Positions 2,970 to 12,908 of a stretch of DNA of 32,000 nucleotides are shown in pieces. The stretch comes from Micrococcus luteus NCTC 2665 (GTDB lineage: Bacteria > Actinomycetota > Actinomycetes > Actinomycetales > Micrococcaceae). Position 1 is the first letter of the stretch. Every line of letters begins with the position of its first letter. A model generated the notes under the pieces. It was not told the DNA's origin. It ran no database searches and was given only the letters and a program-made list of their open reading frames with translations. A program made the translations under genes and the position numbers. Location: NCBI RefSeq assembly GCF_000023205.1, contig NC_012803.1, forward strand, positions 450,001-482,000. Reading direction: 5' to 3'.

Positions 2970-4172
<1,203 letters not shown>

Positions 4173-5679: not shown

Positions 5680-7548
5680 ATGAGCATGGAGTCGGCGGCA
5701 CGGATGTCCATGATGCGGATGACCCGCGGGCAGTCCGACGCCCAGCAGAGGCTCGCCCGCGGCACGGTGCGCCGGACCATCGCGTTCGCGGGCCGGTACC
5801 GCACCCGCCTGATCGTGTTCGTCGCGGCGTCCATCGTGGGCGCGGTGCTCGGCGTGGCCTCGCCCGTGTTGGCCGGCGACGTCGTCAACGCGATCACCGG
5901 TGGCGCGGACCGCGGGCTCGTGGTGCGGCTGGCCCTGCTGATCGCCCTCGTGGCCGTGCTCGACGCGGCGCTGTCCGTGTTCACCAAGTGGCTCTCCGCC
6001 GGGCTGGGGGAACGCGTCATCTACGACCTGCGCACCGCCGTGTTCGACCACGTACAGCGCATGCCGGTGGCGTTCTTCCAGCGCACCCGCACCGGCGCGC
6101 TCGTCTCGCGCCTGAACAACGACGTGATCGGGGCGCAGTCGGCGATCTCGCGGACGCTCTCCGGCGTCGTCGCGAACGTGGTGTCCGTGGCGCTGACCCT
6201 GGGGGTGATGGTGGCCACCAGCTGGCAGGTCACCGTCCTGTCCCTCGTGATGCTGCCGCTGTTCCTGGTGCCGGCCCGGGCGGTCGGCTCGAAGCTGGCG
6301 GGCCTGTCCCGCGAACGGGCCGGGCACAACGCGGCCATGGGCGACCAGATGACCGAGCGGTTCTCCGCTCCCGGCGCCACGCTCATCAAGCTCTTCGGCC
6401 GCCCCGCCGCCGAGTCCGCCGAGTTCGCCCGCCGTGCCGACCGCGTGCGCGCCACCGGCGTGGACATCTCCGTGCGCCAGGCGGTCTTCACCACGCTGCT
6501 CACCCTGGTCTCCGCGCTCGCGCTCGCGGCCGTGTACGGCGTGGGCGGGCTCCAGGCGATCGCGGGCACCCTCGACGCCGGCGACGTCGTCACCCTCGCC
6601 CTCCTGCTGACCCGCCTCTACGCGCCCCTGACCGCGCTGGCGAACGCCCGCGTGGAGATCATGAGCGCGCTCGTGAGCTTCGAGCGCGTGTTCGAGGTCC
6701 TGGACCTGGAGCCGCTCATCACGGAGCCCGCGCGGCCCGCGGCCCTGCCGGAGGGGCCCCTGTCCGTGCGGCTGCGGGACGTGCGCTTCGCCTACCCCAC
6801 CGCGGAGCAGGTGTCCCTGGCCTCCCTCGAGGAGGTCGCGGTGCTGGACTCACGCGGCGGCGAGGAGGTGCTGCACGGGATCGACGTGGCCGTGCCCGCC
6901 GGGGCCACCGTGGCCCTCGTGGGCTCCTCGGGTGCGGGCAAGTCCACCATCGCCTCGCTCGTCACGCGCCTGCACGACGTCACCTCCGGCGCCGTCGAGA
7001 TCGGCGGCGTGGACGTGCGGGACCTCGCGTTCGCGGACCTGCAGCGGGCCGTGGGCATGGTGACCCAGGACGGCCACCTCTTCCACGAGACCGTGCGTGC
7101 CAACCTGACGCTCGCCCGCCCCGACGCGACGGACGAGCAGCTGTGGGACGCCGTGGAGCGCGCCCGCCTGCGCCCCGTGGTCGAGGCGCTGCCGGACGGG
7201 CTGGACACCGTGGTCGGCGAGCGCGGCTACCGCCTCTCCGGCGGCGAGCGGCAGCGCATGACGATCGCGCGGCTGCTGCTGGCGGCCCCGCGCGTCGTGG
7301 TGCTGGACGAGGCGACCGCGGCGCTGGACTCCACCAATGAACGCGCCATCCAGGAGGCGCTGGGGGAGGCGCTGGCCGGGCGGACCGCGATCGTGATCGC
7401 GCACCGGCTCTCCACCGTCCGCAGTGCGGACGAGATCCTCGTGGTCGAGGCCGGGCGGATCGTGGAGCGCGGCACGCACACCGCTCTGCTCGCGGCGGAC
7501 GGACGGTACGCGGAGCTCTACACCACGCAGTTCGCCGACGCGGAGTGA
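5680..7548 (+). CDS. ABC exporter, fused permease plus ATPase (type I exporter half-transporter)
   Basis: ATG at 5680 is preceded by GAGCGGAGGGG. A six-helix TMD (RLIVFVAASIVGAVLGV...) is followed by an NBD with Walker A GSSGAGKST, signature LSGGERQR and Walker B VVVLDEATAALD. The upstream 126 codons of the track ORF (5302) are Arg/Ala-rich shadow sequence. Confidence 0.88.
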   Translation: MSMESAARMSMMRMTRGQSDAQQRLARGTVRRTIAFAGRYRTRLIVFVAASIVGAVLGVASPVLAGDVVNAITGGADRGLVVRLALLIALVAVLDAALSVFTKWLSAGLGERVIYDLRTAVFDHVQRMPVAFFQRTRTGALVSRLNNDVIGAQSAISRTLSGVVANVVSVALTLGVMVATSWQVTVLSLVMLPLFLVPARAVGSKLAGLSRERAGHNAAMGDQMTERFSAPGATLIKLFGRPAAESAEFARRADRVRATGVDISVRQAVFTTLLTLVSALALAAVYGVGGLQAIAGTLDAGDVVTLALLLTRLYAPLTALANARVEIMSALVSFERVFEVLDLEPLITEPARPAALPEGPLSVRLRDVRFAYPTAEQVSLASLEEVAVLDSRGGEEVLHGIDVAVPAGATVALVGSSGAGKSTIASLVTRLHDVTSGAVEIGGVDVRDLAFADLQRAVGMVTQDGHLFHETVRANLTLARPDATDEQLWDAVERARLRPVVEALPDGLDTVVGERGYRLSGGERQRMTIARLLLAAPRVVVLDEATAALDSTNERAIQEALGEALAGRTAIVIAHRLSTVRSADEILVVEAGRIVERGTHTALLAADGRYAELYTTQFADAE

Positions 7549-7570
7549 GGGGCGGGCAGTTTCACGGGAC

Positions 7571-7640
7571 GTTCAGAATGTCCGAATGTTCATGAAAACT
7601 GAATGTTCAGGATAGATGAACATCGCGCTATAGTGGTCAC
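7571..7640 (+). promoter_or_regulatory. AT-rich repeat-bearing leader with a candidate leaderless promoter for the 7641 gene
   Basis: GAATGTTCA occurs at 7584-7592 and 7601-7609 as direct copies 17 bp apart. An inverted TGAACAT lies at 7617-7623 and a related GTTCAGAATGT at 7571-7581. TTCATGAA (7589-7596) is an 8-bp palindrome. TATAGT (7629-7634) fits the actinobacterial -10 pattern TANNNT and ends 6 nt before the A of the ATG at 7641. No Shine-Dalgarno sequence is present. Confidence 0.45.
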
Positions 7641-8657
7641 ATGAAGTGGCGGACGCCCGGGCCGGCGGAGTTGGCCCCGTACATCAGGGCACTGGACTCG
7701 ATAGGAGCGGACAGCGACCCGCCCGGCGAGGCCGCCCTCCTGCCGGACGGAAGCCGGCGGAAGCTGGCGCTGTGGGGTGATGTCGACGCCGTGGACCCGC
7801 GAGCCGAGGCGGTCGGACTGCTGGAGGAGCTCGATCGCCTGGACGGCGCCCAGGATTTCCTGGTCCTGGTGCCGACGGTGGACGCCGCCCTCGGTCACCG
7901 CCTGCGTGAGCGGGGCGTCGCCTATCTGGACTCCCATGGCAATGCCCGCATCCATGCATCGGGACTCCACGTCCACGTCGAAGGCCGCCGGTCGAGTCCG
8001 GCGAGGCGTCGGCCACGACGCGGCGGAGGGACCCCCGGCGCCCGCTCCGGTGCACTGAGCACGCCCGCCGGCCTGCGGGTGGTGTTCGCACTGTTGGAGG
8101 TCCCTGACCTGCGGCGCTCCACGGTCCGCGACATCGCGGGGGCCGCCCTGGTCTCCATAGGAACCGCTCAACAGGTCCTCCGCGTGATGCGGGACGAGGA
8201 GTATCTCCGGGACACAGCCGTACCGGCGCGCTCGCTGGGGCGCAGAGGAGACCTGGTCAGGCTGTGGGCCATCGGCTACCGGGAGCGGTTGGTGCGTACC
8301 CTGGAATCCCGGTTCATGACGGCGCCGGGCGCCGTGGCCGACCTCGTGGAGACCTTGCGCGGCGACGTGGGAGTGACGATGGCAGGCGACGCACTGGCCC
8401 CGGTGATCAGGAACGGGACCGGAGTGGTGGTCTTCGGAGAGCCGCCGTGGGGCGCCGCCATCCGGGCCGGCCGACTGCGTGCCGCGGTGGAGCAGACTGA
8501 GGTCGTGTTGCGACAGCGGTTCTGGGACGAGACCGCCCTGCGACTCGGACCACTGGCGCCTCCGCTCCTGGTGGGGGCCGAGCTGCTCTGCACTTCCGAC
8601 CCGCGGCTGCGCGAGGCCGGGGAGCAGATGGTCGCCGATGAGGCGCGCCGTGACTGA
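7641..8657 (+). CDS. Winged-HTH protein, AbiEi-like (type IV TA antitoxin/regulator family) with an extra N-terminal domain and an Arg-rich linker
   Basis: 338 aa. The central wHTH-like segment is GLRVVFALLEVPDLRRSTVRDIAGAALVSIGTAQQVLRVMRDEEYLRD. The C-terminal block PLAPPLLVGAELLCTSDPRLREAGEQMV resembles the conserved tail (..PLL.YADLL..GD.R..E.A..) that I recall for AbiEi_3-type antitoxins. Residues 1-115 form a separate alpha/beta-looking domain, followed by GRRSSPARRRPRRGGGTPGARSG. Family assignment is from memory. Confidence 0.5.
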   Translation: MKWRTPGPAELAPYIRALDSIGADSDPPGEAALLPDGSRRKLALWGDVDAVDPRAEAVGLLEELDRLDGAQDFLVLVPTVDAALGHRLRERGVAYLDSHGNARIHASGLHVHVEGRRSSPARRRPRRGGGTPGARSGALSTPAGLRVVFALLEVPDLRRSTVRDIAGAALVSIGTAQQVLRVMRDEEYLRDTAVPARSLGRRGDLVRLWAIGYRERLVRTLESRFMTAPGAVADLVETLRGDVGVTMAGDALAPVIRNGTGVVVFGEPPWGAAIRAGRLRAAVEQTEVVLRQRFWDETALRLGPLAPPLLVGAELLCTSDPRLREAGEQMVADEARRD

Positions 8658-8717
8658 CCCCTCGGGGACATCCTCCCGCAGCTCCGCTCCGTCTCGAATC
8701 GGCTTCAGTCCGAACTG

Positions 8718-9410
8718 ATGGTGATAGGGGCCCACGCGCGCGACGCCGTCCTGGTGGAGCTGGGGTCGTCCGCCGGGAAGGAGACTCAGGACGTCGACGT
8801 CGTCGTCGAACTTCCCCACGGGGTCTCATATCAGGAGGTGGTCAGGGCCCTCGGGCCCCCGGTCAACGACAAGGGGTTCACCTTCGAGATCGAGGGAGTC
8901 CCGGTCGATGTGCTACCGAGGATCGAACGACTCGACGAGGCCGCCACGTTCTCGCCGGGTCGGGGCATCGTGCTCGACGTCCGCGGGCAGTCCGAGGCGT
9001 ATCAGTCGGCGCGCCGGGTCGAGATCGAGCCAGGACTCTGCGTGCGGCTGCCGACGGTGGAGGGCCTGCTGCTCCTCAAGATCATCGTGTGGAACATCCG
9101 ACAGACGCAGACCGTGAAGGATGCTCGAGACCTGAGCATGCTCTTGGCCGCCATCGCGGGGGCGCGCCTCCGAGACGAGGAGGTCTGGGATGCCTCCCTC
9201 CTGGCGCAGACCGACCACGACGCGGAGGCCGCGGCATGGCTGCTCACCGGCGAGCAGGCCCGCTCTGACGCTCCCGAGGCCTCGGCCGTGTGCGCTGAGA
9301 TCATCGCGACGTCGGGCAGTGCTCTTCTTCGGGACATGGGCCTGACCGACACCTTCGGGATGTACGCACTCAGACTCGCGGCGCTCCGGCGCGGTCTCAT
9401 GGGATCCTGA
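8718..9410 (+). CDS. Minimal nucleotidyltransferase-fold protein, AbiEii/MenT-like candidate toxin
   Basis: 230 aa. MVIGAHARDAVLVELGSSAGKETQDVDVVVELP fits the G[SA]-x(n)-D-x-D polymerase-beta-type NTase signature, here at the extreme N-terminus. The later LLLLKIIVWNIRQTQTVKDARDLSMLL fits the K..A...R....D..DL pattern I recall for DUF1814/AbiEii. No SD precedes the ATG. The gene shares its reading frame with the upstream gene. Confidence 0.5.
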   Translation: MVIGAHARDAVLVELGSSAGKETQDVDVVVELPHGVSYQEVVRALGPPVNDKGFTFEIEGVPVDVLPRIERLDEAATFSPGRGIVLDVRGQSEAYQSARRVEIEPGLCVRLPTVEGLLLLKIIVWNIRQTQTVKDARDLSMLLAAIAGARLRDEEVWDASLLAQTDHDAEAAAWLLTGEQARSDAPEASAVCAEIIATSGSALLRDMGLTDTFGMYALRLAALRRGLMGS

Positions 9411-9413
9411 CGG

Positions 9414-9487
9414 TGCCCCAGGCCGGAATCGAACCGACGGCCTACCCTTTAGGAGAGGGTCGCTCTATCCAACTGAGCTACTGGGGC
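9414..9487 (-). tRNA. tRNA-Arg (anticodon CCT)
   Basis: Manual cloverleaf on the minus strand. Acceptor GCCCCAG/CTGGGGC, D-arm GCTC-AGTTGGATA-GAGC, anticodon arm ACCCT-CTCCTAA-AGGGT (anticodon CCT), variable loop AGGCC, T-arm GTCGG-TTCGATT-CCGGC, discriminator A. Total 74 nt. CCA is not fully encoded (the genome reads CCG). Confidence 0.9.
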
Positions 9488-9539
9488 GCGGACCGCGCGC
9501 CGAGCGCGCCGGTCCGGTGAGCGAGTCTAGCCGAGGCGT

Positions 9540-10208
9540 TCAGGCCCGCGGCGCGGCAGGACGACGACGGCGCCGCCCGGCCCACAGCATCACGGCCACC
9601 GCCAGCGCGATCAGCGCCAGCAGCACCCAGCGGGTGAACGTCAGCGCGGCGGCCAGCTCGGCGCCCGCACCGCCGGCGGCGATGGCCTGCTCGATGGCGA
9701 TGTTCTCCGCGATGTCCACCACGGCGAACAGGACGCCCACGCCGAGGGCCGCCCACTTGGCGGCCACGGGCCGCAGCCGCCAGGCGCCCACGGCGGCGAG
9801 GGTGAGGGCCACGGCCACCGGGAAGATCACGCCGGCCGTCTTGTGCACCCAGTTGAGCTGGCCGCGCGCGTCCTCGTCCATGGCCTCGGAGAGCGCGCGG
9901 ACGTGGTCCTGACCGTAGAAGAGCATCGAGTCCGGCATGGCCAGGCCGCCCGAGAGCTGGGTCATCTGCTGGAGGACCAGCAGGTGCAGGTACGCGCCCA
10001 CGAGCAGGGTGGTCACGATCAGCGCGCTCACCGGGATCGCCGGGCTGCCCTCCTGCTGACCGGCGGTCGCCAGGTCCTCGCGGACGTTCACGTCCCGCAG
10101 GGTGGGACGGGCGCGCTCCGCGCCGGCCTCCGGGCGGGCGGCGGACGAGCCGGCGCGCGCGGCGGGCTGCGACGCGCGGGGACGGGACTTGCGGGACTTC
10201 TGGGACAC
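9540..10208 (-). CDS. Hypothetical integral membrane protein with a basic, disordered N-terminus
   Basis: 222-aa ORF with a GTG start. MSQKSRKSRPRASQ... is followed by about 4 hydrophobic helices (PVSALIVTTLLVGAYLHLLVL, GVIFPVAVALTLAAVGAW, WAALGVGVLFAVVDIA, WVLLALIALAVAVMLWA). No family was recognised. Confidence 0.6.
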   Translation of the reverse strand: MSQKSRKSRPRASQPAARAGSSAARPEAGAERARPTLRDVNVREDLATAGQQEGSPAIPVSALIVTTLLVGAYLHLLVLQQMTQLSGGLAMPDSMLFYGQDHVRALSEAMDEDARGQLNWVHKTAGVIFPVAVALTLAAVGAWRLRPVAAKWAALGVGVLFAVVDIAENIAIEQAIAAGGAGAELAAALTFTRWVLLALIALAVAVMLWAGRRRRRPAAPRA

Positions 10209-10331
10209 GGGGCACCTCCGCCGACCATCATCCCAGACGGCGTGGATGGCTCAGTCCGCGCGCCGGCAGCGGGCCGTCGTCGTGCCCCCGCCCGCTGTCC
10301 CGTCCGGGACCCCGCCTAGACTGGATCCGCC

Positions 10332-12908
10332 ATGGCTGACCTCTTCTCCGCGCTCGGACGCTCGCCCCTGAACCCCTCCCGGACCCGCCGCGACGCGGAC
10401 CCGGAGACCGCCCTGCCCGGGCTCGTGCCCCCGGCCGTCACCCGCGCCGCGGCGGACCCGGAGGCGGGCGCGCGGGGGTGGGGCGACGACGCCGCCGGGG
10501 CCGCCGTGGCCCACACCCCGGACTCCCTGGTCGAGGGGCTGAACCCGCAGCAGTCGGCCGCCGTGACCCACACGGGCGCCCCGCTGCTGATCGTGGCCGG
10601 CGCCGGCTCGGGCAAGACGCGCGTGCTGACCCACCGGATCGCCTGGCTGCTGGCCACGGGCCGGGCGCGCCCGCACGAGATCCTCGCCATCACCTTCACG
10701 AACAAGGCGGCGGCGGAGATGCGCGAGCGCGTGGCCGGGCTGATCGGCCCCACCGCCCAGCGCATGTGGATCTCCACGTTCCACTCCTCGGCCGTGCGCC
10801 TGCTGCGCAACGAGGCGGCGAACATCGGGCTGAAGTCCACGTTCACCATCTACGACTCGGCGGACAGCCTGCGCCTGGTCACCACCGTCGCCAAGCAGCA
10901 CGAGCTGGACCCGAAGCGCTTCGCGCCCAAGGCCCTGCTGAACCGCATCAGCTCCCTGAAGAACGAGCTCGTGGAGGCGGACGACTACGCCGCCACCGTG
11001 GCCGAGGGGGACCCGTGGGGCCGCGCCGTCGCCGCCGTCTACCGGGACTACACGGCCCGCCTGCGCCAGGCCAACGCCCTGGACTTCGACGACCTGATCG
11101 GCATGACGGTCCACATGTTCGAGGCGTTCCCGCGCGTGCTGGACAACTACCGCCGCCGGTTCCGCCACGTCCTCGTGGACGAGTACCAGGACACCAACCA
11201 CGCCCAGTACCGCCTGATCCGGCTCCTCGCCGGCCCGGCGGGCGACCCCGAGGGCGTGGAGACCCCCGGCGGCGAGCTGACCGTCGTCGGCGACTCGGAC
11301 CAGTCCATCTACGCGTTCCGCGGCGCGGACATCCGCAACATCGTCGAGTTCGAGCAGGACTTCACGGACGCCGTCACCATCAAGCTCGAGCAGAACTACC
11401 GCTCCACGCAGACCATCCTGGACGCCGCCAACGCGGTGATCGAGCGCAACCCGGACCGCCGCCCCAAGCGCCTGTGGACGGCCGAGGGGGAGGGCCCGGC
11501 GATCGTCGGCTACGCCGCGGAGAACGAGTCCGCCGAGGCCGAGTGGATCGCCGCCACCATCGACCGGCTGCAGGACGAGGACGGGATCCGCCCGTCCGAC
11601 GTCGCCGTGTTCTACCGGACCAACGCGCAGTCCCGCGCCCTCGAGGAGCGCCTCGTCACCCGCGGGATCCCGTACCGCGTGATCGGCGGCACCCGGTTCT
11701 ACGACCGCAAGGAGATCAAGGACGCGCTCGCGTACCTGCGGGTGATCGTGAACCCGGACGACGACGTGAACGTGCGCCGCATCCTCAACGAGCCCAAGCG
11801 CGGCATCGGGGACCGGGCCGAGGGCGCGGTGGCGGCGTGGGCGCAGCGGAACCGCTCCACGTTCTCCGCCGCCCTGCGCGACGCGGAGCACGCCCCCGGC
11901 TTGGCCGCCCGCTCGCTCAAGGCCGTCAACGGGTTCGTGCAGATGATGGACGACCTGGCCCAGGTGGCCGAGACCGCCGGCCCCGCCACCGTGCTCGAGG
12001 CCGTGCTGGAGCAGTCCGGCATGCTCGCCGCGCTGCGCGAGTCCGAGGACCTGCAGGACGAGTCCCGCGCGGACAACCTCGGCGAGCTCGTGGCCGTGGT
12101 GCGCTCCTTCGAGAAGACCACGCCGGACGGCACGCTCTCGGACTTCCTGGAGCAGGTCGCGCTGGTGGCGGACGCGGACCAGCTGCCCACCGCCCCGGAC
12201 GTCGAGGGCGAGGCGCTCGCGGAGGCCCAGGGCCAGGTCACGCTCATGACGCTGCACACCGCCAAGGGCCTGGAGTTCCCCGTGGTGTTCCTCACGGGCA
12301 TGGAGCACGGTGTGTTCCCGCACGCCCGGTCCATGACGGACGAGAAGGAGCTCGCCGAGGAGCGCCGCCTGGCGTACGTGGGGCTGACCCGCGCCCGCCG
12401 TCGCCTGTTCCTCACGCGCGCCGAGGCGCGCTCGCTGTGGGGCCAGCACCAGTTCAACCCGCCCAGCCAGTTCCTCGGCGAGATCCCGGAGGCGCTCATC
12501 GACTGGGAGCGCGAGGGCACCACGCGCTCGGCCGGCTCGCTGAGCCTCACCGGCGCCGGCACCTCGCGGTACGCGGGCCGGTTCGGCGGCGGGCGACCGG
12601 CCTGGCGGTCCCGGGACGACGACGACGGCGCGCGGCCCCAGCGCCTCACCCGCGGGGACGAGCCGGCGGACCTGACGGTGCCCTCCGCCGTGGTGCGGGG
12701 GAAGGCGCCGAGCCGGGTGCAGCCGCAGAAGGAGATCGTGGCGCTCAGCCCGGGCGACCGCGTCTCCCACGCGACCTTCGGCGAGGGGCGCGTGGACGCC
12801 GTCGCGGGCGCCGGGGACAAGACCGTCGCGACCGTCACCTTCGACGCCACCGGGGCGCAGAAGCGGCTGCTGCTGCGCTACGCGCCGCTGACGAAGGTCG
12901 AGGGCTGA
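10332..12908 (+). CDS. pcrA: ATP-dependent DNA helicase PcrA/UvrD (SF1A) with a long disordered N-terminal extension and a C-terminal Tudor-like tail
   Basis: LNPQQSAAVTHTGAPLLIVAGAGSGKTRVLTHRIAWLL (Q motif plus Walker A), VLVDEYQDTNHAQY (motif II), GDSDQSIYAFRGA, LEQNYRST and TLHTAKGLEFPVVFL...RRLAYVGLTRAR. It is syntenic with sucCD, as UvrD1 is in mycobacteria. Confidence 0.92.
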   Translation: MADLFSALGRSPLNPSRTRRDADPETALPGLVPPAVTRAAADPEAGARGWGDDAAGAAVAHTPDSLVEGLNPQQSAAVTHTGAPLLIVAGAGSGKTRVLTHRIAWLLATGRARPHEILAITFTNKAAAEMRERVAGLIGPTAQRMWISTFHSSAVRLLRNEAANIGLKSTFTIYDSADSLRLVTTVAKQHELDPKRFAPKALLNRISSLKNELVEADDYAATVAEGDPWGRAVAAVYRDYTARLRQANALDFDDLIGMTVHMFEAFPRVLDNYRRRFRHVLVDEYQDTNHAQYRLIRLLAGPAGDPEGVETPGGELTVVGDSDQSIYAFRGADIRNIVEFEQDFTDAVTIKLEQNYRSTQTILDAANAVIERNPDRRPKRLWTAEGEGPAIVGYAAENESAEAEWIAATIDRLQDEDGIRPSDVAVFYRTNAQSRALEERLVTRGIPYRVIGGTRFYDRKEIKDALAYLRVIVNPDDDVNVRRILNEPKRGIGDRAEGAVAAWAQRNRSTFSAALRDAEHAPGLAARSLKAVNGFVQMMDDLAQVAETAGPATVLEAVLEQSGMLAALRESEDLQDESRADNLGELVAVVRSFEKTTPDGTLSDFLEQVALVADADQLPTAPDVEGEALAEAQGQVTLMTLHTAKGLEFPVVFLTGMEHGVFPHARSMTDEKELAEERRLAYVGLTRARRRLFLTRAEARSLWGQHQFNPPSQFLGEIPEALIDWEREGTTRSAGSLSLTGAGTSRYAGRFGGGRPAWRSRDDDDGARPQRLTRGDEPADLTVPSAVVRGKAPSRVQPQKEIVALSPGDRVSHATFGEGRVDAVAGAGDKTVATVTFDATGAQKRLLLRYAPLTKVEG

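Follow-up and report, generated by a model that had tools for sequence, protein, structure and literature searches.

The two genes between an ABC exporter and tRNA-Arg(CCT) in Micrococcus luteus NCTC 2665 are best explained as a chromosomal COG4861–COG4849 (AbiEi_2/DUF1814) toxin–antitoxin (TA) module of the AbiE/MenAT superfamily, in which the antitoxin-regulator gene is intact and the toxin gene has been split by a single-nucleotide deletion. We put the probability of this explanation as a whole, including the disabling of the toxin, at about 0.7. The module falls into the MenA2–MenT2 subtype, a placement that follows the published COG and Pfam mapping and not a direct sequence comparison with Rv0837c/Rv0836c. 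Since the toxin gene is disrupted, we doubt that the pair works as a defence or TA system in this genome. The coordinates in Table 1 refer to the window, by which we mean the whole stretch of 32,000 nucleotides that was analysed.

Table 1. Features of the exporter–tRNA interval and its surroundings, in window coordinates.
Feature	Position	Strand	Details
ABC exporter, left neighbour of the pair	stop codon 7546–7548		
Leader, in which the promoter and operator are presumed to lie	7549–7640	+	92 nt, 49% GC
Candidate operator, GTTCAG/CTGAAC-type half-site array	7571–7622		Inverted repeats, clustering
TATAGT, −10-like hexamer	7629–7634	+	Ends 6 nt before the gene 1 ATG; read from sequence
Gene 1, COG4861/AbiEi_2 antitoxin-regulator, 338 aa	7641–8657	+	Pfam PF09952; ACS29964.1
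Divergent block (pair, tRNA flanks, membrane-protein gene, pcrA 5′ end)	7650–10800 (∼3.2 kb)		Sliding identity versus L008 and empty-site L015
Ancestral gene 2 start codon	8650–8652	+	GTG here, ATG in L008; junction alignment
Out-of-frame 22-codon ORF left by the frameshift (MTDPSGTSSRSSAPSRIGFSPN*)	8650–8718	+	Read from sequence
C4 run where 1 nt has been deleted (intact alleles have C5); frameshift at gene 2 codon 4/5	8658–8661	+	Junction alignment
Stranded coding remnant of the NTase N-terminus (helix α1), 60 nt	8658–8717	+	In frame with genes 1 and 2; no start codon
Gene 2 residual ORF, COG4849/DUF1814 MenT1-like NTase, 230 aa, lacking the first ∼23 residues	8718–9410	+	ACS29965.1
tRNA-Arg(CCT)	9412–9487	−	Core gene outside the module; ARAGORN; Rfam 68 bits

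As the original prediction had it, exactly two same-strand ORFs lie between the exporter and the tRNA, and the ORF listing agrees. Both are exact database matches to M. luteus NCTC 2665 proteins, and NCBI records label gene 1 as DUF2186 or as an AbiEi family antitoxin. The 3′ end of the tRNA (9412 by ARAGORN, 9414 by Rfam) adjoins the stop codon of gene 2, and the tRNA was the sole match in an Rfam scan. An antisense ORF of 409 aa (7590–8819) was considered as a gene and set aside; without a Pfam match, it is an artefact of the kind usual in high-GC DNA. The composition of the pair had been called foreign by eye, and this stands in part. GC3 is 0.835 for gene 1 and 0.853 for gene 2 against 0.909–0.993 for 12 neighbouring genes; the leader is richer in AT, and rare arginine codons are in excess (six AGG and two AGA in the pair, compared with two in the 12 neighbours combined). 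The A/T-ending codons that had been described as frequent are instead few: ATA 3, CTA 1, TCA 1, TAT 4, CTT 3, AAT 1 and CAT 2, with GGA at 14.

Gene 1 matches Pfam AbiEi_2 over residues 202–333 with 27.7 bits (gathering cutoff 21; E = 3.8e-6), and the C-terminal tail that had been likened to AbiEi falls within this match. All eight gene 1 relatives match the same model (best 2.9e-35), two of them matching MarR_2 as well. The protein is laid out as an N-terminal domain (residues 1–115), an Arg-rich linker (∼116–135), a winged helix–turn–helix (wHTH; ∼136–200) and the AbiEi_2 domain. The N-terminal ∼115 residues had been listed as a departure from AbiE; a profile search gave 434 matches, nearly all of 355–370 aa, and both the domain and a length of ∼340–360 aa are normal for this family. 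The N-terminal domain of COG4861 proteins is conserved. In the AlphaFold2 model of gene 1 it has a pLDDT of 72–84, the wHTH region has ∼73 and the C-terminal domain is poorly modelled. Fold searches and profile searches of the PDB gave weak MarR/AsnC-type HTH matches at E > 0.1 and none for the N-terminal domain. A PD-(D/E)xK-like reading of this domain (D97…E114-G-R116) was considered and found no support. The gene 1 family had no match among the PADLOC models. Gene 1 has a dN/dS of 0.25.

Membership of gene 2 in COG4849/DUF1814 comes from its family profile (1,218 clusters) and not from the single sequence: single-sequence scans of Pfam, NCBIfam and PADLOC gave nothing usable, the window protein alone having no Pfam match and only a weak one to PADLOC PDC-M21B (E = 0.028). 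Pfam AbiEii/DUF1814 (PF08843) matches 46 of 60 family members (best 2e-13), and P0003, an orthologue with 60% identity to gene 2, passes the AbiEii gathering threshold (25.4 versus 22.5). The best structural relative is MenT1, both by PDB search with the family profile (8an4, E = 7.7e-8) and by Foldseek with the predicted fold (8an5/8an4); a shallow early profile had returned noise only from the PDB sequences. The nucleotidyltransferase (NTase) signature and the K…R….D..DL motif that had been picked out by eye are borne out: the residues are present (G4-A5, T23, D25xD27, D64, K121-W125-R128 and D135/D138-L in ORF numbering), and G4-A5, D25xD27 and K121…R128…D135..D138 occupy invariant columns of the 60-member family alignment. 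Likewise, T39, D41xD43, K137 and D149/D152 of MenT1 align with the invariant T43, D45xD47, K141 and D155/D158. All four motifs by which COG4849 NTases are defined (hG[G/S], DxD, motif III KLxAaxxR and the acidic residues of motif IV) are present in gene 2, motif I with Ala in place of Gly or Ser and motif III as KIIVWNIR, in which the fourth position is Val rather than the Ala of 90% of members. A dN/dS of 0.40 indicates that gene 2 is still under overall constraint.

These assignments correspond to a published pairing. PF09952 (AbiEi_2, formerly DUF2186) is equivalent to COG4861 and PF08843 to COG2253/COG4849; COG4861–COG4849 pairs are widespread, with Rv0837c–Rv0836c (MenA2–MenT2) of M. tuberculosis as the example. 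MenA2–MenT2 shares with the window an operon in which a gene for a large COG4861 wHTH protein precedes one for a shorter DUF1814/COG4849 NTase, as well as an actinobacterial host; it differs in that the toxin gene of this Micrococcus genome is frameshifted. The description of the pair as 'atypical AbiE/MenAT-like' is supported as to the superfamily and unsupported as to 'atypical', since the combination of a larger antitoxin and a shorter COG4849 NTase has been published as the COG4861–COG4849 (MenAT2-type) arrangement. MenT1 (Rv0078A; PDB entries 8AN4, 8AN5 and 8RR5), itself stated to be COG4849, comes closest to gene 2 both among solved structures and in the sequence-profile search and shares the four NTase motifs and the position of the Thr phospho-acceptor, but is only ∼20% identical to gene 2. 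Its antitoxin, MenA1, is a helical peptide of 68 aa that lacks a DNA-binding domain, in contrast to the 338-aa regulator here. Canonical AbiE (Streptococcus agalactiae and Lactococcus lactis; COG5340–COG2253) and MenAT3/MenAT4 are also bicistronic, with a wHTH antitoxin gene first and a DUF1814 NTase gene second; their promoter inverted repeats for autorepression and antitoxin-induced auto-phosphorylation of the toxin would likewise have counterparts here. The antitoxin of these systems is a COG5340 protein (Pfam AbiEi_1, AbiEi_3 or AbiEi_4) of ∼200 aa with an N-terminal wHTH and no sequence identity with COG4861, and their toxin is larger and of the COG2253 subclass; gene 1 has AbiEi_2 as its sole match, and its wHTH is central, behind the 115-aa domain. 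Among the PADLOC models, PDC-M21B of the candidate system PDC-M21 matches 32 of the 60 gene 2 family members (best 1.4e-7), the AbiEii models being weak for this family; the resemblance is limited by the score of the window protein itself and by the lack of any match to the gene 1 family. PDC-M21 is itself a candidate and is not known to have a validated defence phenotype.

The 230-aa ORF is the remnant of a gene for 253–257 aa that has been split by the 1-nt deletion. In the junction alignment the run is C4 in the window and in L005, L006 and L007 but C5 in L008 and L001; C5 is also required by P0168, in which the window allele, at 98% identity, is intact and encodes 257 aa. Gene 2 orthologues begin MTDP(L/F)(G/A)D. 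Gene 1 and gene 2 share one reading frame in the window, and the segment between them translates to PLGDILPQLRSVSNRLQSEL, identical to the N-terminus of P0168; the ORF is an interrupted gene because this segment still encodes the conserved NTase N-terminus in frame. The start codon is also stranded: GTG 8650 overlaps the stop codon of gene 1 in GTGACTGA and no longer shares the frame of the enzyme, so that the coupled toxin start of the orthologues, whose junctions overlap (by the 8-nt ATGACTGA in L008, and also in L024 and L026), is lost. We nevertheless read the window as a mutated member of the COG4861–COG4849 pairs rather than as a non-member. The short NTase with its catalytic motif at residue 4, which the original prediction listed among the deviations from textbook AbiE, is a product of the C5-to-C4 frameshift and not a distinct architecture; the remnant between the two genes had been overlooked. 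The C4 state is identical across several independent assemblies, and the exact 230-aa protein is found on 134 contigs; the frameshift allele is the commonest form. Within the lineage, gene 2 has acquired four non-synonymous and two synonymous changes since the frameshift, too few to show relaxed selection.

The system could still be functional if the 230-aa enzyme without α1 were made by reinitiation at TGATG (8716–8720), where the TGA of the 22-codon ORF overlaps ATG 8718, and acted as an active toxin under the control of gene 1. Termination–reinitiation may occur at this site, and the residual ORF keeps every catalytic motif and is free of additional stops or indels; the prevalent allele has diversified by ∼1% without further disruption, and three of 150 family representatives also start, as called, at the same Met. 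We nonetheless consider a functional truncation unlikely. In each of the 60 aligned family members the G-motif is preceded by 23 or more residues, and the one seemingly short plasmid copy has a mis-called start. The AlphaFold2 model of the NTase has a helix at residues 3–16 (pLDDT ∼89–93) that is confidently predicted to pack on the sheet, and in MenT1 residues of α1 contact MenA1 and form part of the antitoxin-binding pocket. The window protein also has the A144V change at a nearly invariant position of motif III, and ATG 8718 is not preceded by a Shine–Dalgarno sequence. We therefore retain the reading of a gene interrupted at its fifth codon or the one before it, with a toxin that is probably disabled or weakened.

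It would be quite another matter if the C4/C5 tract were an expression switch and not a site of simple decay, a reading to which we give very little weight. A single allele lineage, 98% identical, contains both states of the C-run (C4 in the window, C5 in P0168), which was counted toward it. A −1 slip of tRNA-Pro on C-CCC (8658–8661) would restore MTDPLGD exactly; the deletion has put the enzyme in frame with gene 1, and readthrough of TGA 8655 would therefore yield a 589-aa antitoxin–toxin fusion. If a switch did operate, a lethal NTase would be held at a very low, recoding-dependent level by slippage or readthrough.

The leader contains an array of half-sites (GTTCAG at 7571–7576, TGTTCA at 7587–7592 and TGAACA at 7617–7622) with a palindrome, CTGAAT.GTTCAG, at 7599–7610. 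Clustering of the half-sites is statistically supported: TGTTCA has 12 matches in the 32 kb, three of them within 36 bp, where ∼3 would be expected across all of the window. In M. luteus L008 the leader is conserved but for one mismatch, and the array is retained across four different leader alleles; the M. lacusdianchii allele contains CTGAACGTTCAG as a perfect palindrome, and the L020 allele has TTCAGAA.G.TTCTGAA. The array overlies the presumed −35/−10 region and is a candidate operator for the wHTH of gene 1. A scan for consensus σ70 promoters and terminators found no full promoter and no terminator; the spacing of the TATAGT hexamer to the ATG suggests a leaderless transcript.

The pair is present in only some M. 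luteus strains, among them those of the NCTC 2665 type. Empty sites are seen in strains whose HNH neighbour protein is identical and whose left flank is 99.97% identical, and there the tRNA is kept and the flanking genes are core and syntenic. When filled and empty sites are compared, homology resumes exactly at GGTGCCCC, and the tRNA is the right boundary of the presence/absence polymorphism. The same exporter–tRNA site is filled in three diverged Micrococcus lineages, with pair proteins that are only 60% identical. A contig search that needed two exact peptide patterns, in a collection that can mask stretches, matched M. lacusdianchii alone; given these limits, the lack of M. luteus among its matches is not counted as evidence. 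The divergent block lies inside flanks of 97–100% identity, and dS is 0.33–0.34 for the pair versus 0.03–0.05 for the HNH and ABC genes; we interpret the block as a homologous-recombination tract through the core flanks. The comparison shows that the module is accessory, occupies one fixed site and has spread among Micrococcus lineages by homologous recombination and not through an integrase. Close relatives lack the module at this junction, and the proposed insertion of an island at the tRNA 3′ end is not supported. Site-specific integration of a genomic island into the 3′ end of tRNA-Arg(CCT) would account for the adjoining tRNA, for a GC3 below that of the neighbours and for the polymorphism, but we find it scarcely credible: there is no integrase, the tRNA 3′ segment is present in a single copy and no direct repeat was found at the boundaries (the lack of integrase and att repeats had been recognized from the outset, and a search for a duplicate of the tRNA 3′ end and for boundary repeats upheld it). 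Nor does such integration fit the core, syntenic genes of the empty sites, the filling of one site by such dissimilar pairs or a divergent tract that runs 1.4 kb past the tRNA into pcrA; phage matches are absent, and there is only one remote plasmid match. Distant family members are not beside tRNAs, which speaks against an island and is also the ground on which we rejected a link between the AGG codons and tRNA-Arg(CCT), as well as one between a toxin that modifies tRNA and the tRNA next to it.

A gene of the NTase family also sits downstream of distant AbiEi_2 genes, in L022, in L023 and on an Arthrobacter plasmid. The window, L022 and L023 represent three lineages, unrelated to one another, in which the NTase gene is specifically disrupted beside an intact AbiEi_2 gene, a decay expected of a costly toxin. 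This bears on whether the pair is a TA or defence locus at all, or a transcription factor and an NTase with a non-toxic regulatory or housekeeping role. MenT2, the only studied toxin with a COG4861 partner, is non-toxic in two hosts, M. smegmatis and Escherichia coli, and in PADLOC the NTase family appears solely under the candidate PDC-M21B, with the gene 1 family unmatched. The homology to the toxic MenT1 and AbiEii, the dispensability of the pair given the empty sites and the NTase-specific disruptions make such a role improbable in our view.

Under the preferred explanation of a disrupted TA module, the central winged helix of gene 1 would most likely bind the GTTCAG/CTGAAC array over its own promoter and repress the operon, and the AbiEi_2 domain would most likely neutralize the partner enzyme. 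By analogy with AbiEi–AbiEii, MenA1–MenT1 and MenA3–MenT3, neutralization would consist of binding and triggered auto-phosphorylation of the invariant Thr (T23, two residues before DxD); AbiEi-induced auto-phosphorylation of AbiEii has been reported. The homology of intact gene 2 suggests a MenT1-like NTase that would extend tRNA 3′ ends by added nucleotides and so halt translation. In the window, the deletion in the C5 run detaches the enzyme from its start codon, and at best a product without the universally conserved helix α1 might arise from reinitiation at ATG 8718. The toxin has thus probably lost all or most of its activity, the antitoxin-regulator probably being intact. For this subtype both TA behaviour, given the non-toxic MenT2, and phage defence are presumptive, and in this genome a shortened gene 2 product may be translated and could retain activity.

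The pair is another case of a known kind of TA, and the finding is real but ordinary. For annotation, the type-strain entry ACS29965.1 is a 5′-truncated remnant. Beyond this point and the series of alleles, we regard the site as an ordinary accessory TA locus. The alleles, however, form a natural series for the least-studied branch of AbiE/MenAT (COG4861–COG4849), with intact, frameshifted and empty sites in near-identical M. luteus backgrounds, and this series could be used to test the toxicity of the subtype, phage defence and the role of the COG4861 N-terminal domain.

The two plus-strand ORFs lying between an ABC exporter gene and tRNA-Arg(CCT) form a pair of a known, already annotated subtype, COG4861–COG4849. 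Dy et al. (2014) reported COG5340–COG2253 (canonical AbiE) and COG4861–COG4849 (STRING 99%) as two strongly associated pairs; the Pfam equivalent of COG4861 is PF09952, and that of COG2253/COG4849 is PF08843. The proteins match ACS29964.1 ('DUF2186' in the NCBI annotation) and ACS29965.1 ('predicted nucleotidyltransferase') of Micrococcus luteus NCTC 2665 exactly. Gene 1 passes Pfam AbiEi_2 (PF09952; 27.7 bits, cutoff 21, residues 202–333), as do 8/8 relatives (best 2.9e-35), two of which also match MarR-type wHTH models. The gene 2 protein alone matched no Pfam model. Among 60 aligned members of its family, 46 match Pfam AbiEii/DUF1814, 32 PADLOC PDC-M21B and 19 PADLOC AbiEii, and orthologue P0003 exceeds the Pfam AbiEii gathering score. 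The profile of gene 2 orthologues (1,218 representative clusters, typically 255–295 aa) finds Mycobacterium tuberculosis MenT1 in the PDB (8AN4; E = 7.7e-8). The AbiE/MenAT-type assignment of the original prediction was essentially right. In Foldseek, the AF2 model of the nucleotidyltransferase (NTase; pLDDT 80–93 over residues 1–160) came closest to MenT1, with ANT(2'')-Ia and CCA-adding enzymes next. Of the invariant NTase columns (G24, R28, T43, D45, D47, G110, W145, R148, D155 and D158), several align to MenT1 T39, D41xD43, K137 and D149/D152.

Features of the pair, its leader and its neighbours (window coordinates)
Feature	Position	Strand	Remark
ABC exporter gene	TGA at 7546-7548		left neighbour of the pair
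GTTCAG	7571		leader half-site
TGTTCA	7587		leader half-site
CTGAAT.GTTCAG	7599-7610		leader palindrome
TGAACA	7617		leader half-site
Gene 1 ORF	7641-8657	+	338 aa
Gene 2 ORF	8718-9410	+	230 aa
tRNA-Arg(CCT)	9412-9487 (ARAGORN) or 9414-9487 (Rfam, 68 bits)	-	right neighbour of the pair

The features that had made the pair look atypical are each either the family norm or the result of a frameshift. The N-terminal domain of gene 1, taken to be an extra one, is the norm because its relatives share length, full-length homology and invariant residues: almost all of the 434 proteins found by the gene 1 profile (E ≤ 1e-5) are 355–370 aa long and PF09952-positive, with scores that imply homology over the full length, and a 46-member alignment has invariant L74, P78, D97, G100, N101, G108, V113 and G115 in this domain. 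It is modelled by AF2 with pLDDT 72–84; Foldseek and PDB profile searches with gene 1 gave nothing beyond weak HTH matches.

The short NTase, with its motif near the N-terminus, is a frameshifted remnant. Genes 1 and 2 share one reading frame, and the 60 nt 3' of the gene 1 TGA encode PLGDILPQLRSVSNRLQSEL, continuous with MVIGAHARD of gene 2. Orthologues P0002 (78% identity, 253 aa), P0003 and P0004 begin with MTDP(L/F)(G/A)D, ∼23 residues upstream of the gene 2 ATG. At the junction, M. luteus GCA_900452945.1 and a second contig have ATGACTGACCCCCTC, with five C residues (C5), whereas the window and three independent SRA assemblies have GTGACTGA-CCCCTC (C4). Across the pair, five more contigs match the window at 99.9–100% identity and another (L020) at 98.8%, the exact 230-aa product is present on 134 contigs, and the window's own allele survives intact as P0168 (257 aa, 245/250 identical). 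The C5-to-C4 deletion is thus real, lineage-fixed and recent. The ancestral GTG start at 8650, which overlaps the gene 1 stop, now opens an out-of-frame 22-codon ORF whose TGA overlaps ATG 8718 (TGATG), and a reinitiated truncated NTase product may be made. At 8655–8661, speculatively, TGA readthrough in the single frame would yield a 589-aa gene 1–NTase fusion, and MTDPLGD would be regained exactly if tRNA-Pro slipped by -1 on C-CCC.

What is lost is the N-terminal helix α1. At least 23 residues precede the G-motif in 60/60 aligned members, α1 (residues 3–16) is confidently modelled in AF2, and its MenT1 counterpart forms part of the pocket that binds the antitoxin. Motif III, KLxAaxxR in COG4849 (Dy et al., 2014), is KIIVWNIR in the window's gene 2, with the substitution A144V (position 9088 of the window, in codon 124 of gene 2; numbered 144 in the full-length protein) at a nearly invariant position that is Ala in the intact sister allele and about 90% of the family. 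The window's toxin is therefore probably disabled or attenuated. Distant AbiEi_2 genes (30–34% identity) are also followed by NTases of this family on contigs L022 (E = 1.5e-47) and L023 (1.8e-24). The L022 NTase (3188–4100) is split by a frameshift and that of L023 (1094–1757) has an in-frame stop after α1; each is a single metagenomic contig in which assembly error is possible, and toxin decay is only suggested. The conjugative plasmid of Arthrobacter sp. U41 (NZ_CP015734.1 53451–55302) carries such a pair (NTase 1.7e-56) beside an IS3 transposase and a recombinase. Its NTase, WP_069953023.1 ('hypothetical protein'), was rejected as an α1-less copy: the start set in RefSeq seems to lie ∼22 codons too far downstream, and α1 is encoded in frame ahead of it.

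The pair does deviate in composition, as was originally noted. In a window of about 0.72–0.78 GC, GC3 is 0.835 for gene 1 and 0.853 for gene 2 versus 0.909–0.993 across 12 neighbouring genes, AGG/AGA codons number eight versus two in all 12 neighbours (genes as called on a contig that matches the window exactly), and the 92 nt leader is 49% GC. A/T-ending codons, described as frequent, are present, but several of those listed occur just 1–4 times. A 409-aa antisense ORF (7590–8819, minus strand) overlapping gene 1 and the gene 2 start has no Pfam match and was rejected as a typical high-GC shadow ORF.

Island insertion at the tRNA 3' end had been proposed for the pair. M. luteus L008 and M. 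lacusdianchii-like genomes share the order HNH–ABC–pair–tRNA-Arg–membrane protein–PcrA. Empty sites with an identical HNH protein are found in GCA_002863375.1, GCA_004117015.1 (CP026366.1) and one SRA contig, where the ABC stop is followed by 24 nt and the tRNA 3' end; homology between filled and empty sites is lost right after the ABC stop and regained exactly at the tRNA end. No tRNA duplicate or boundary repeat was found at the pair. Against L008, flank proteins are 96–99% identical (dS 0.03–0.05) and the pair 83% and 78% (dS 0.33–0.34), within a divergent tract of ∼3.2 kb (∼7650–10800; 80–90% identity to other M. luteus strains, flanks 97–100%) that runs past the tRNA. In the left flank, identity to the empty-site contig L015 is 99.97%; the right flank diverges until ∼10750 and then matches at ∼100%. 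All three lineages show a low GC3 for the pair (0.78–0.85). There were no phage matches and one remote plasmid match only. The pair is thus an accessory module of long standing whose site is a fixed hotspot, and its gain, loss and exchange proceed through homologous recombination rather than site-specific integration.

No Pfam model matches the predicted membrane protein (9540–10208, minus strand; 222 aa, but 216 aa in other strains), which is evolving rapidly (it shares 84% identity with its L008 counterpart, versus 96–99% for ABC and PcrA); the stretch between its gene and pcrA, especially 10200–10330, is hypervariable (31% identity, 119 gap columns versus L008). P0162, P0171 and P0172, partial sequences that share at least 90% identity with the AbiEi_2 protein of M. 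luteus, are filed under Xanthomonas citri pv. citri (on 278–317-nt contigs) and Kaistella montana, likely through Micrococcus contamination of those assemblies.

The leader holds an array of half-sites, with three of the 12 TGTTCA matches in 32 kb lying within 36 bp. The array is kept in four different leader alleles, and the M. lacusdianchii leader has a perfect CTGAACGTTCAG. A third allele (L005, L006; L020 4713–4832) differs at ∼18 positions and keeps the array. L005 has AAG in place of the gene 1 start ATG, giving a 328-aa call; the variant occurs in P0174 and P0181 on at least nine contigs. TATAGT ends 6 nt before the gene 1 ATG, a position that suggests a leaderless mRNA.

By homology, the proposed mechanism of the pair would be that of MenT1, MenT3 and AbiEii. 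MenT1, a COG4849 enzyme, adds CMP to tRNA 3' ends, and MenT1, MenT3 and AbiEii are neutralised by antitoxin-induced auto-phosphorylation of a Thr/Ser before the DxD motif. The M. tuberculosis COG4861–COG4849 example is Rv0837c–Rv0836c (MenA2–MenT2), whose antitoxin is 'much larger' than its toxin; MenT2 showed no toxicity in M. smegmatis or Escherichia coli, yet it has been reported to play a part in infection of guinea pigs. The value of the locus is modest: it offers a natural series of intact, frameshifted and empty sites for the poorly studied COG4861–COG4849 branch.
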